Assembly (NCBI GenBank): GCA_000004695.1
Contig: CM000154.2
Coordinates: 4,512,001-4,576,000, forward strand
Length of the DNA stretch: 64,000 bases
Direction: 5' to 3'
Origin: Dictyostelium discoideum
Taxonomy: Eukaryota
The translations under genes were made by a program, and so were the position numbers. This document shows positions 1-47,094 of the stretch, piece after piece. The notes beneath the pieces were generated by a model, which made no database searches, was not told where the DNA came from, and was given only the letters and a program-made list of their open reading frames with translations. Positions within the stretch are counted from its first letter, which is position 1. Each line of letters begins with the position of its first letter.

Positions 1-3000
1 CTGATAGCACAATAATTTGCAAACCACCATCAAATGAAATTTATACACCATATCTTCAATCAAAAGATTCAATCATTAATAAACCTGAACAATTCAAACA
101 TTTATATAGAGTAGATGAATTTAGTGTCAAAGAAGAAGATAATCAATTACTTTCAATTGAATTATTATTGTCATTGTTTTATAAACACATTAATAATAGA
201 TGTCCAAGTATCAATTTAGAATCATTAGCAACATTAGAATATGATCAATTCAAACAATTATATTATAATAGTTTAGTAAATGAAAATCTTTTCAAATTCA
301 TTTTTGAAATTTTAAAAAAATACCAAAACCTTCCTAAAATTAGTAATAATAATAATAATAATAATAATAATAATAATAATAATAATAATAATAATAATAA
401 TAATAAAAATAATGGTTATAATAATTATGAAAATTTATATATTAGAACAACTAAAGTAATGGCAAAACAGTTATTCCCATTAAAAGATGATGATTCTATT
501 ACAGATACACCACAATCATTATTTGAAATTGGTTATTTAAATGAATTTTATAAGAATTCAAATGTAATTCAACCATCAAATAATTTATTAAGTGAAATTA
601 TAGTTGAAACTCTAAAACCAATTTTAAATGAACCAATTGTATTTCGTATATTAGAAGCAGGTGGCGGTACTGGTAGTCTTAGTTTATTAATTTTAGAAAA
701 GATTTGTAAATTATTAAACGATAATAGTACAACATCAATCATTAATATAGAATTTACATGGAGTGATATATCTGCATCATTTTTCGCTGAAATTAAAGAA
801 AAGTTCTCATCATTTACAAATCACAACAATTTAAATATTATCTATCGTGTATTAGATTTAGAGAAACCATTATTAGATCAAGATCTTAAAGCATCCTATT
901 ATGATTTCGTTGTAATGTCAAATGTCATGCATGTCGTTAAGAAACTCAAACCAACATTAAATGAAATTCATAATATATTAACACCAAATGGTCAACTTTT
1001 ATATATAGAACCACCATACAAATCATTTTATTATGATTCAATTTTCGGTTGTTTTTCACAATGGTGGCCATCCTCGGATAGTGATATCGAATTAAGACCT
1101 GATAGATGTTGTATGAAACAAGAGAAATGGATTAACCTTTTAAATCAATGTAATTATAAAGATACAATAATGTCTGGTAATGATAATTTAGCATTTTTAA
1201 TTCAAACTAGAAAACCAACAATTAATGAAATCATTTCAGAAGAATCAAAATCATTAGATCAATTAAATTCTTTCAGTAATATTATTTTATTTAGCAATAA
1301 TAATAATATTAGAAATAATAATAATAGAAATAAAAATGATAGCCGCAGCAGTATACAAAATTTAATATCATTGAATCAAGAATTAAGACACAAAATCGTT
1401 AATATTAATAATTATAATGAATTTCAATCATGGATCACAAATAATCAAAATAAAGATGATTGTAATAAAACATTAATAATATTTTTAAAATCAATTGAAT
1501 CAACAATGAATACTTTTAATTTCAAAGAAATCACATTTGAATACATTCAAATTAATCAATTAATATTAAAATTAGAATTATCAAATAATTTCAAACATTT
1601 ATTATTATCATTAAATTCAAGCACTGATAATTATTTATCATCATCAATTATTGGTTCTGCTCGTTATTTCCACGTTGAATTCCCACAATTAGATTTATTA
1701 ACTTTAAATTATGATAATGTTTCAATTGAAAATAATCAACAATTATCATTAATCAATTACTTAATCAATTCAGATAATAATATTCAAATAGAATTTACAA
1801 TTAATAATAATAAAGTATACTATGAAAGATATTTTAAAAGATCAAATAATATTAAATCAAAACTTCAATCTGAATCATTTGAAACCAATAAAGATAATTT
1901 ATATATTCAATTAAATTCAAATTTAGAATACCAATTATATAGTAAAAAAGATGAATTAAATTCAAATGAAGTAGAGATAGAAATTAAAGCAACTGGTATA
2001 AATTATAAAGATTATTTAATGTATATCGGTATGATTGGTTCAGATTTAGATATTAAATATGGTAAAGAGTATGAAATTGAAAATGGTATTGGTATTGATA
2101 ATCCAAACATTGGTAATGACTTTAGTGGTATTATTACAAGATTAGGTAATAATGTAAAGAAATTTAAAGTTGGTGATCAAGTTTGTGGTATTGGTCCAAA
2201 AGCAAGTAGTTCACATGTTATTGTAGATTTCAATTTTATTTATTATAAACCATTTAATTGTAATCATTCAGTTTCAGCCTCAATACCATCTATTTATATT
2301 ACATCATTACATAGTATCTATAGTATTGGTAATTTAAAATCAAATGAATCAATTTTAATTCATTCAGCAGCAGGTGGTATTGGTATATCATCTTTAGATT
2401 TATTAAAAAGTAAACAACATCAAGGTTATATATTTTTAACAGTTGGTTCAAAAGATAAAGAAGAATACTTAACAAAGAAATATGGATCATTAATTACTGC
2501 TATCTATTCATCTCGTAATAAAAACTATGTCAAAGATATAAAGAATAAATTAATAGAATTAGGTGAAGTTGAACAACAAGGTGTAGATTTAATATTAAAT
2601 ACATTATCATCAGAGTATATGGATTCAAATTTCCAATGTTTAAATTTATCAGGACGTATCATTGATTTAAGTATCACTCATCTCACACCAAATGATTATA
2701 TGACAAATAATCATTTCAAATTTAATATGACATATAGTAATGTAGAAGTTGTCGATTTCACTAGTAAATTAATCAAAAGTTATTTAAAGAAAATTATCAA
2801 AATGATTAATTCAAATAAATTAGAGTTAAGTGTACCAATCATTGAATATTCAAATAATCAATTTAAAGATGCAATTGAATATATAAATCAAAGAAAACAT
2901 ATTGGTAAAATCATTGTTAATCATAATCAAGATGAATTTAATAGAGTTTATAATAATTATCAAAGTAATAACAATCATATCATAATGAAACATTCATATG

Positions 3001-5670
3001 ATATTTCAAAATTAAATATTGGTAAAAATATTTTACTCACTGGTCAAACTGGTATTGTTTTAGAAATATTAAAATATTTAATTAAATATTCAAATCACTC
3101 AATTGAAAATATTATAATACTTTCAAAATCAAAATTAAAATGGGAATTAGAATTATTAATTAATCAAAGCAAATTTAAAAAAGATAATATTATCAAATTC
3201 CATTTCAATCAAATCGATATTGAAGATTCAAATAAAGTTAATCAAGTATTAAATCAATTAGAATTAAATGAAAATATTACAAACATTGATTCAATTATTC
3301 ACTTTGCATTTATGAATGATATTAGTGATATTCAACAAGTTGATATGAATCGTTTAAATAATACACATGGTGCTAAAACAATCGGAGCAATTAATCTTCA
3401 CAATCAATCAATTAATCGTTCATGGAATATCAAACAATTTATAATGGCATCATCAGTAGTTTCAATAGTTGGATCAGACCGACAATGTTGTTATGTTAGT
3501 GCATGTAATGTTATCGATTCATTATCAAAGTATAGACATTCAATTGGATTACCATCTTTAGCCATTAATTTAGGAGCGATATCATCAACTGGTTTCATAT
3601 CACGTAATAATGCAATTGAAACAATGTTCAAGAGTTCAATTTTAAATTTATTCTCACCTCAACTCATTATTAGTTCATTAGATTTATTCATTCAAAATCA
3701 ACATCAATATCCAAATTATTGTATATCAGATTTCAATTTTGAAATTTTACCATCAACTTTAACAAACCAATACCTTTCAAAATTTGATTTTGAAATTAAT
3801 ATTGTTAAAAAATCAAATCAAATGAAATCTTTCACTGGTGGTAACGGTGATAGTAATAATGAAATTATTCGTTCAACAATTTTAAATAAAATCAGTGAAT
3901 TATTATCAATTGATGAATCTAAAATCAATGAAGACCTTCAACTCACACAATATGGTATGGATAGTTTAGTAATTGTACAATTAAAGAATTTTATCGATAA
4001 TCAAATAGGTCATAATATTATCACAATTCAACAATTACAAAATAATAAAATCAATCAATCAATTGAAATTATTAAATCTGCTCATAACAAAAATAATAAT
4101 AATAATAATATTAATAATAATAATAATAATAATAATAATAATAATAATAATAATAATAATAATAATAATAATAATAATAATAATAATAATAATAATAATA
4201 ATAATAACAACAATTTAGTTAAAAAAGAACAACAATCACTTGATGAATTTATTAAAAATGAAACTAAATTAAATGAATCAATCATTTCAAGACCATATTC
4301 AATTAAAAATATATTAAATAATAATAATAATAGTAAATCAATATTCTTAACAGGTTCAACAGGATTCTTGGGTGCATATTTATTAACAGAATTAATTAAA
4401 ATGAACAATGTCTCAAAAATTTATTGTTTAATAAGAAATAATTCAAAACTAACAAATCCAATCGATGTAATTATTAATAATTTAAAGAAACATCAACTAA
4501 TAGATATGAACGAAGAATCACCAAAAAGAAAAACAAAAATAAACGACCATACAGGCAACATATCAAATGATAAATTATATGGTAATTTAAACAGTGATAA
4601 TAGTAGTAATAATCAAATAAAAGAAGATCAATTAATTAAAATCATTCCAATGATTGGTGATATTTCAAAAGATAAATTTGGTTTAACTGAACAAGACTAT
4701 TTAAAACTTTCAAATGAATGTGATATTATTATAAATTCAGCAGCAGATTTAAATTTAAAGTCAAGCTATGAAGAAAGTAAAATTGTAAATATTAACAATG
4801 TTAATCAAATTATTAAATTGTCAATTTCAAATAATAGCTCACAAAAATTAATAGTTCATTTTTCATCACTTGCAGTATTCATTAATCATCCTTTTGAAGA
4901 TGGAGAGGATTTTGAAGAAACAAATATAGTTCCAAGTTTTAATTCTACACCAGTTGGATATATTCAATGTAAAGTTATTTCAGAGAGATTATTAACAAAT
5001 GCAGCAGAATCAAGAGGTATACCATCAATCATTATTAGACCACCTGGTATGTAGCATGTTAATATTAATTGCTTGAAATTAATATATTAATTTAGTATTA
5101 ACCTTATATAATATTCCAATAACTATTTTCATTGCTATTTTAATTATAGATATATTCTCAAATCCAATAACAGGTATAGGTCATTCAAATGATTTTATAT
5201 CACTTTTAATAAAATCTTCGAAAGAGATTGGTTATTATCCAAATATTCATAAATCAGTTTTCACAACTCCAGTTACAACTATAGCTAAAACCACAATCGA
5301 TTTAATATTCAATGAAAACAGTTGGAATCAAAATAAATCAAAACCAATTTCAATTTATAATTTTAATGGTGATTCAATTGAAATGAAATCATTTTATAGG
5401 GTATTAGAAAATAGTTTTAAATGTAAAGAAATCGATTTCTATGAATGGATTGAATTAGTTTCAAAATCAAATGGAAAATCATCAAAAAGATATTCAACAT
5501 TCCACATTCACAAAAATCAAAATTTATTAATAACAAGCTCTAAAATCAATAGTTTATTCAAAATGTCAAATAGCACAAAAGAATTATTAATTTCAATTGG
5601 TTCATATAATCATCAAGATTGGGAAATTAATGAATCAATCATTTTAAATGATATTATTAACAATCATTAA
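1..5670 (+). CDS. Type I reducing polyketide synthase PKS-A, 5'-partial (enters window inside DH/linker; CMeT-ER-KR-ACP-R present). Two exons in window: <1..5046 and 5150..5670 (phase-1 intron 5047..5149, GTATGT..TAG)
   Basis: Open frame runs from position 3 to 5046 (ORF track 168..5054 is its ATG-delimited part). Motifs seen: CMeT SAM motif [12 protein letters not shown] (~nt 650-690). ER NADPH motif [13 protein letters not shown] (~2360-2400). KR Rossmann [15 protein letters not shown] (~3035-3080). ACP GMDSLV (~3955-3975). Poly-Asn linker 4081-4205. R-domain [15 protein letters not shown] (~4340-4385) and YIQCK (YxxxK, ~4955-4985). After ...IIRPPG a GTATGT donor (5047) and TAG acceptor (5147-5149) join in frame to 5150..5670 ([12 protein letters not shown]...INNH*). 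That continuation matches the uninterrupted C-terminus of PKS-D. Confidence 0.9.
4081..4205 (+). repeat. (AAT)n about 41 units, in-frame poly-Asn linker between ACP and R domain of PKS-A
   Basis: Uninterrupted AAT triplets translated as N-run in the PKS-A frame. The equivalent tract in PKS-B (12300-12355 on + strand) is about half as long. Confidence 0.9.
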
Positions 5671-46976: not shown

Positions 46977-47094
46977 TTAAAAAATAAAATTTTAAAATTT
47001 TAATAAATATAAATATAATTTTTAATTTATTTATTTTTTTTTATTATTACTATTATTATTATTATTATTATTATTATTTTTTAATTAATTAATT

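Follow-up and report, generated by a model that had tools for sequence, protein, structure and literature searches.

A window of 64,000 nucleotides from the Dictyostelium discoideum reference genome (assembly GCA_000004695.1, contig CM000154.2, positions 4,512,001 to 4,576,000 of the forward strand) contains three complete reducing type I polyketide synthase (PKS) genes, one partial PKS gene, two PKS pseudogenes and one intact cytochrome P450 gene, cyp514A1. The PKS genes, designated PKS-A to PKS-D in their order along the window, had been described together with the P450, in a preliminary description of the sequence, as a single biosynthetic cluster. This grouping is not supported by the comparisons presented here: PKS-C and PKS-D appear to be part of a copied chromosome 2 block, and the conserved partner of the P450 is a PKS of the A/B type only. 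The window as a whole is explained best, and in our judgement rather probably, as a composite in which the meaningful unit is the pair formed by an A/B-type PKS and a CYP514A enzyme. The gene map, which is based on Pfam scans of long open reading frames (ORFs) and hand-built exon models, includes the following features.

3-5046 and 5150-5670, plus strand: PKS-A, 3' part (Pfam; frame open from base 3; 3' splice site)
about 6185-10346, plus strand: PKS pseudogene 1, A/B-type (Pfam AT, DH_N, KR and ACP only)
20622-10863, minus strand: PKS-B, 7 exons (20622-20247, 20145-19953, 19881-19757, 19686-19219, 19117-18923, 18851-11493, 11383-10863), 3,078 amino acids, KS-AT-DH-CMeT-ER-KR-ACP-R
24338-24276, 24197-23156, 23066-22842 and 22714-22536, minus strand: cyp514A1 (UniProt Q54FM9), 4 exons, 502 amino acids
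24339-25478, plus strand: former divergent promoter and degenerate PKS first-exon remnant (about 25420-25478)
25479 to about 27350 (upper limit approximate), minus strand: 3' part of a non-LTR (long terminal repeat) retrotransposon; poly(A) tail at 25479-25500, C-terminal part of ORF2 at 25600-26835
27649-28285 and 28360-35267, plus strand: PKS-C = pks35 (DDB_G0295667), 2 exons, 2,514 amino acids; exact sequence look-up
about 35680-37089, plus strand: PKS pseudogene 2, C/D-type (an N-terminal KS fragment and a fragment spanning the C-terminal KS and N-terminal AT)
38115-38751 and 38818-46976, plus strand: PKS-D = pks36 (DDB_G0295659), 2 exons, 2,931 amino acids; exact sequence look-up
47095-49055, minus strand: NADH dehydrogenase gene of the NDH2 type (Pfam)
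49968-50531, plus strand: DDB_G0295665, 187 amino acids; exact sequence look-up
50919-51018: assembly gap of 100 N, right limit of the chromosome 2-type block

Origin of the two parts of the window

The window was compared with a chromosome-level, long-read assembly (GCA_054883475.1) that is independent of the AX4 reference and whose proteins are identical to those of AX4. Positions 12228-26819 correspond to chromosome 5 of this assembly (CM142511.1) with 99.98% identity, and positions 25519-50918 correspond, with 99.7-99.9% identity, to a chromosome 2-type contig, on which the gene order is pks7-pks8-relic-pks9-NDH2-DDB_G0271534. The two matches overlap only inside the 3' part of the retrotransposon, which is present at both loci. 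Up to position 26610 the window shows no mismatch to the chromosome 5 copy, and between 26532 and 48067 a single mismatch separates it from the chromosome 2 copy; the switch from one to the other is therefore placed at 26532-26610. The other end of the chromosome 2-type block coincides exactly with the N gap, and its few differences are concentrated in the last 600 bp (a cluster at 50297-50601).

On chromosome 5 of the long-read assembly, cyp514A1 is followed by the full retrotransposon, PKS fragments, a PKS of 3,101 amino acids, cyp514A4, pks31 and pks30; the pks8-pks9 block is not beside cyp514A1. The full element at that locus carries the Exo_endo_phos and RVT_1 domains (endonuclease and reverse transcriptase). 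The retrotransposon ORF in the window gave no Pfam match, and no tRNA gene was seen near the element.

The first part of the window (about 1-26.6 kb) is thus assigned, by its sequence match, to an array on chromosome 5 that is made up of CYP514A genes in alternation with highly reducing iterative type I PKS genes of the pks30/31 subfamily. The second part (about 26.5-50.9 kb) appears to reproduce, almost without change, the block pks8-relic-pks9-NDH2-DDB_G0271534 of chromosome 2. The PKS-C protein is identical to pks8 (DDB_G0271618) and the PKS-D protein to pks9 (DDB_G0271530). Pseudogene 2, with 92.7-96.9% nucleotide identity to pks35, also has its counterpart between pks8 and pks9 on chromosome 2, where it is annotated in GCA_054883475.1 as two genes of 116 and 331 amino acids. 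Its near-identity to chromosome 2, its join within a retrotransposon common to both loci and its end at an assembly gap point to either a chimeric assembly or a transposon-mediated duplication of very recent date, in both cases outside the native neighbourhood of the P450. Either way, pks35 and pks36 in the AX4 reference, as a possible artefact or a strain-specific copy of pks8 and pks9, have consequences for the mapping of reads, the design of knockouts and the counting of genes.

PKS subfamilies and the P450

The PKS genes of the window fall into two subfamilies, A/B and C/D, with 46-47% identity between the groups. PKS-A and PKS-B are 91% identical in amino acid sequence (95.8% in nucleotide sequence) and 87-90% identical to pks30 and pks31; PKS-C and PKS-D share 92% identity, and each is 91-93% identical to pks6 and pks7. 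The four KS-AT-DH-CMeT-ER-KR-ACP(-R) genes reported earlier within 47 kb are confirmed as complete by Pfam domain calling for PKS-B, PKS-C and PKS-D, but not for PKS-A, which is truncated by the window start: its C-terminal 1,854 amino acids (CMeT-ER-KR-ACP-R) lie inside the window and its KS-AT-DH region outside. The exon coordinates bear out the convergent arrangement of PKS-A and PKS-B and the tandem arrangement of PKS-C and PKS-D. Sequence comparison, proposed earlier as a means of naming the loci, identified pks35, pks36 and cyp514A1; PKS-A and PKS-B are labelled tentatively by chromosome order, PKS-A as probably pks33 and PKS-B as probably pks34.

PKS-B is intact. It is collinear from end to end with a homologue of 3,075 amino acids (ACTFIR_002637), and its length equals that of the gene model in GCA_054883475.1, with 99.98% nucleotide identity. 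The identities of 87-92% seen in the best listed matches of PKS-B and the P450 were considered as strain divergence, and this was rejected: the matches are 90%-cluster representatives and orthologues of the neighbouring pks30/31-cyp514A4 unit. Pseudogene 1 has 91-94% nucleotide identity to PKS-B and PKS-A. Its exons 1-3 are gone, three-frame translation reveals in-frame stops and one frameshift, and a tblastn comparison with the 3,075-residue homologue shows that the region from the C-terminal DH through CMeT and ER (homologue residues 1213-2267) is deleted and that the R domain is missing. Both PKS pseudogenes reported earlier are present, the first with stops and deletions and the second as KS and AT fragments. 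Birth-and-death evolution, proposed earlier as rapid, is evident from these pseudogenes and relics, from the first-exon remnant upstream of cyp514A1 and from the PKS relics of D. citrinum (see below).

PKS-B, PKS-C and PKS-D each comprise a single module with the domain order KS-AT-DH-CMeT-ER-KR-ACP (Pfam). The catalytic motifs DTACSSS, HGTGT, NIGH, GHSLGE, HxxxG/DxxxxP, DTCLH and DSL are found in all three, as are the CMeT and KR motifs. The ER domains differ in their NADPH motif, which is canonical in PKS-A and PKS-B (HSAAGGIG) and in pks30 and pks31 (HSAAGGI/VG), whereas it is degenerate in PKS-C and PKS-D (HLGSD(S/G)FG), as it is in pks6 and pks7 (HLGxD(S/G)FG). A difference in reductive capacity had been anticipated, and the motifs agree with it; they suggest that the ER of PKS-C and PKS-D is inactive. 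An R domain of the SDR type, with the motifs TGxxGxxG and YxxxK, is present in PKS-A, PKS-B and PKS-D (NAD_binding_4 E-values 1e-36 to 6e-52) and absent from PKS-C; by Pfam, PKS-D consists of the PKS-C set with R added at the C-terminus. Both subfamilies form pairs of one gene with and one without this domain (pks30/31, pks6/7 and pks36/35). They can also be told apart by the DH motif, HxxxDxxxxP in the A/B type and HxxxGxxxxP in the C/D type, and by the KR motif, YVSAC in the A/B type and YACAN or YVCAN in the C/D type.

The P450 had been described as a four-exon gene with intact ExxR, PERF and FGAGPRGCPG motifs about 2 kb from PKS-B, and in all these respects the description is accurate. The motifs are intact (ExxR being ESYR, and FGAGPRGCPG fitting the heme-binding pattern FxxGxRxCxG), the match to Pfam PF00067 is full length (217 bits, positions 2-460 of 462), and the stop of the P450 is 1.9 kb from the start of PKS-B, with the 5' end of PKS-B facing the 3' end of the P450 in the same orientation. 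The protein has a membrane anchor at its N-terminus and a PGP hinge. It shares 500 of 501 residues (99.8%) with the entry for cyp514A1 of AX4, and is 98.6% identical to cyp514A4 and 64% to cyp514A2. In P450 nomenclature, more than 55% identity places two proteins in the same subfamily, and the window P450 has more than 55% identity to the named members of CYP514A. The protein belongs to a Dictyostelium-specific family. The named matches outside the dictyostelids are CYP71-clan, CYP17 and CYP3A-like proteins, at 23-27% identity, and no CYP51 is named among 120 listed matches; the earlier reservation that the P450 might be a housekeeping CYP51 can be set aside, the gene being cyp514A1.

The deposited AX4 model of cyp514A1 has 575 amino acids, as it skips the stop after FIKRN and adds a 3' exon (22250-22540, minus strand) without P450 homology. 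Because cyp514A4 terminates at FIKRN, as does every full-length orthologue recovered in D. discoideum and D. cf. discoideum, this model is probably over-extended at its 3' end. The 502-residue protein has no exact database match, and it was considered whether the sequence might have a source other than AX4 or the gene be unannotated; both were rejected, since the AX4 entry carries the extra 3' exon.

The region upstream of cyp514A1 (24339-25478) matches the cyp514A4-pks31 intergenic region and the start of pks31 at 89-92% nucleotide identity. It ends in a degenerate first exon of a PKS, whose remnant peptide is IRDRNDDDDVDRNDD, and this remnant is interrupted at 25479 by the poly(A) tail of the minus-strand non-LTR retrotransposon. 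As read from this match, cyp514A1 formerly had a head-to-head PKS partner, which the retrotransposon insertion destroyed.

The PKS-CYP514A pair and alternative explanations

The linkage between PKS and P450 emphasized in the preliminary description is seen again in four related genomes, but it is confined to the A/B subfamily. In wild D. discoideum an A/B-type PKS gene or its relic stands on either side of the P450, one of them head-to-head with it and the other tail-to-tail, and the arrangement in D. cf. discoideum is the same. In D. firmibasis, a PKS of 3,049 amino acids and the P450 form a divergent pair 575 bp apart. In D. citrinum, a stretch of 22 kb (JBTAPL010000082.1, 547125-568876) contains three CYP514A genes in alternation with three PKS sequences, of which one is intact and two are relics. 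In D. dimigraforme, a gene with a P450 domain lies about 10 kb from a PKS. Overall, the CYP514A1/A4 clade adjoins an A/B-type PKS or its relic in every genome of the discoideum-citrinum-firmibasis group that was examined. The divergent intergenic regions between P450 and PKS are short (0.6-1.4 kb), which suggests shared promoters. Duplication has involved the two genes together. Purifying selection acts on both of them: dN/dS is 0.23-0.35 for the window P450 (five comparisons) and 0.20-0.44 for PKS-B (six comparisons).

A two-enzyme pathway of PKS and CYP514A is a plausible candidate. PKS-B, and likewise PKS-A, would iteratively assemble a C-methylated chain from malonyl units, and this chain would be largely saturated because all the reductive domains, including ER, look active. 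The C-terminal R domain would free the chain as an aldehyde or an alcohol, and CYP514A, anchored in the endoplasmic reticulum and working with P450 reductase, would hydroxylate or otherwise oxidise the released product. The enzymes of pks35 and pks36, which have a degenerate NADPH site in their ER domains and are members of the pks5-9 subfamily, would yield unsaturated products unrelated to that of PKS-B. We propose, tentatively and with slightly less than even confidence, that the A/B-type (pks30-34-like) PKS and CYP514A are a true two-enzyme unit of the D. discoideum/citrinum/firmibasis group, which duplicates as a unit, undergoes birth and death, and makes oxidised, methyl-branched, reduced polyketide alcohols or aldehydes. 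If so, Amoebozoa would have their first demonstrated PKS-P450 cluster. Of the roughly 40 PKS genes of Dictyostelium, hardly any has a known product (PMC9618038, PMC12625978), and a conserved PKS-P450 pair would narrow the search for products, in that it tells which P450 to co-express with which PKS, in the way that TPS8 and CYP521A1 were co-expressed.

It could be supposed instead that the P450 shares a single cluster with all four PKS genes, whose differing reductive capacities feed a common, P450-tailored product. The genes are indeed physically adjacent in the window, and the ER motifs of A/B and C/D do differ; nevertheless, we consider this very improbable, as PKS-C and PKS-D belong to the chromosome 2 block copy, with its single mismatch over 26532-48067, its join inside a repeated transposon and its end at the N gap. 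The long-read assembly does not put the C/D block beside cyp514A1, the chromosome 2 genes pks7-pks8-pks9 have no P450 neighbour within the loci examined, and a C/D-type PKS beside CYP514A was found in none of the other genomes examined. Several other points do weigh against our reading of the window as a composite with the PKS-CYP514A pair as its unit. As to the composite structure, the pks35/pks36 block may be genuine, the outcome of a segmental duplication that the transposon mediated very recently in the AX3/AX4 lineage, with no chimera involved. AX4 carries lineage-specific duplications (PMC12745789); the 187-residue DDB_G0295665 differs from its chromosome 2 copy DDB_G0271534, both being deposited as AX4 genes; and non-allelic recombination would be expected to produce just such a crossover, inside a repeat whose two copies are about 98% identical. 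On the other hand, the block stops exactly at the 100-N gap, the differences in its last 600 bp resemble read-end errors, there is one mismatch in 21.5 kb with introns and AT-rich spacers included, and the block is missing at cyp514A1 in the long-read assembly, which comes from a strain whose proteins are identical. A real duplication is the less probable of the two, and a mis-join is favoured over it. The strain of GCA_054883475.1 is taken, by inference from PMC12745789, to be AX2-214.

The other unfavourable points concern the pair itself. The P450 and the A/B-type PKS may have become neighbours only through block duplication, with CYP514A acting on unrelated substrates such as xenobiotics or lipids and sharing no pathway with the PKS. 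Not every gene of the family is linked to a PKS: there is none within the cyp514A2 locus of the AX2-like strain, nor within the D. purpureum locus, which has three tandem CYP514-like genes. The intact P450 genes of D. citrinum adjoin dead PKS fragments, so that these copies outlive their PKS neighbours, and at cyp514A1 also an intact P450 persists beside a decayed PKS. The orientation is not conserved there either, the usual head-to-head partner having been lost to the retrotransposon and PKS-B standing in a non-canonical orientation. Adjacency over this evolutionary distance could, moreover, partly reflect general synteny. Finally, the searchable literature and its supplements yielded no expression, co-expression, knockout or metabolite data for cyp514A1, cyp514A4 or pks30-36. 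The association of the A1/A4 clade with the A/B subfamily throughout the discoideum-citrinum-firmibasis genomes examined, including the divergent spacers of 0.6-1.4 kb, argues against such independence, as does the fact that PKS-P450 clusters are common elsewhere and that a terpene synthase-P450 pair works consecutively in D. discoideum (PMC6524965). An independent P450 is nonetheless a possibility to be taken seriously, if a somewhat doubtful one, and we retain the composite window with its PKS-CYP514A pair as the preferred reading.

The remainder of the window lies to the right of the chromosome 2-type block. The whole window is previously annotated sequence of D. discoideum AX4, the species to which all database matches point, with a GC content of 17-27%, as is usual for Dictyostelium. 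The genes beyond the gap are unrelated to those before it; around and beyond the gap, three further features were mapped.

50801-53731: asparagine-rich ORF of 976 amino acids, no Pfam match
55423-55914: small C2-domain protein, right of the gap
57449-59140: eIF2B-delta-type gene, right of the gap

The 976-residue ORF has no match in the related loci, with weak C2-domain similarity at most. The eIF2B-delta orthologue of D. dimigraforme (99% identical) is on the same contig as an A/B-type PKS, at a locus tag 13 away, an indirect clue that the sequence right of the gap (51019-64000) may be native chromosome 5. A (GTTTTGT)n-like microsatellite at 50790-50918 lies immediately 5' of the N gap, and may be the reason for the assembly break at this point.

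Comparison with known systems

The closest relatives of PKS-C and PKS-D are in the pks5-pks9 array of chromosome 2. The likeness extends from protein identity with pks8 and pks9 to the order of the domains, KS-AT-DH-CMeT-ER-KR-ACP(-R). The polyene dictyodenes are made by Pks5, which is of the pks5-9 subfamily (PMC9618038). The degenerate ER motif that pks6 and pks7 share with pks35 and pks36, the four genes in which it was read, would fit products of the polyene type. The difference is one of location: the window copy is placed on chromosome 5 in the reference, and the loci examined show the chromosome 2 array without a linked P450.

PKS-B and cyp514A1 are most similar to the pks30/pks31-cyp514A4 group, which belongs to the same array of roughly 70 kb on chromosome 5. 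Both loci combine a PKS with R, a PKS without R or a relic, and a P450. They differ in arrangement, since cyp514A4 is head-to-head with pks31 and tail-to-tail with the 3,101-residue PKS, whereas the retrotransposon has destroyed the head-to-head partner of cyp514A1, and PKS-B follows downstream on the same strand.

DdTPS8 and CYP521A1 of D. discoideum set a precedent for dictyostelid clusters of just two genes: they are neighbours, and their enzymes have been shown to act consecutively (PMC6524965). In that system too, the gene of a scaffold-forming enzyme lies beside a P450 gene; however, the enzyme is a terpene synthase instead of a PKS, the P450 is of another family, and PKS-CYP514A is a candidate pathway.

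Fungal clusters of highly reducing PKS, with P450 tailoring and release by an R domain, resemble the amoeba locus in their KS-AT-DH-CMeT-ER-KR-ACP-R set and nearby P450, and the Pfam ACP model matched here is named after the fungal highly reducing PKS SdgA. The two are of independent origin. The fungal clusters are multi-gene, while the amoeba loci examined have no transcription factor, transporter or other tailoring genes; the amoeba locus is a repeated two-gene unit inside an array of paralogues.

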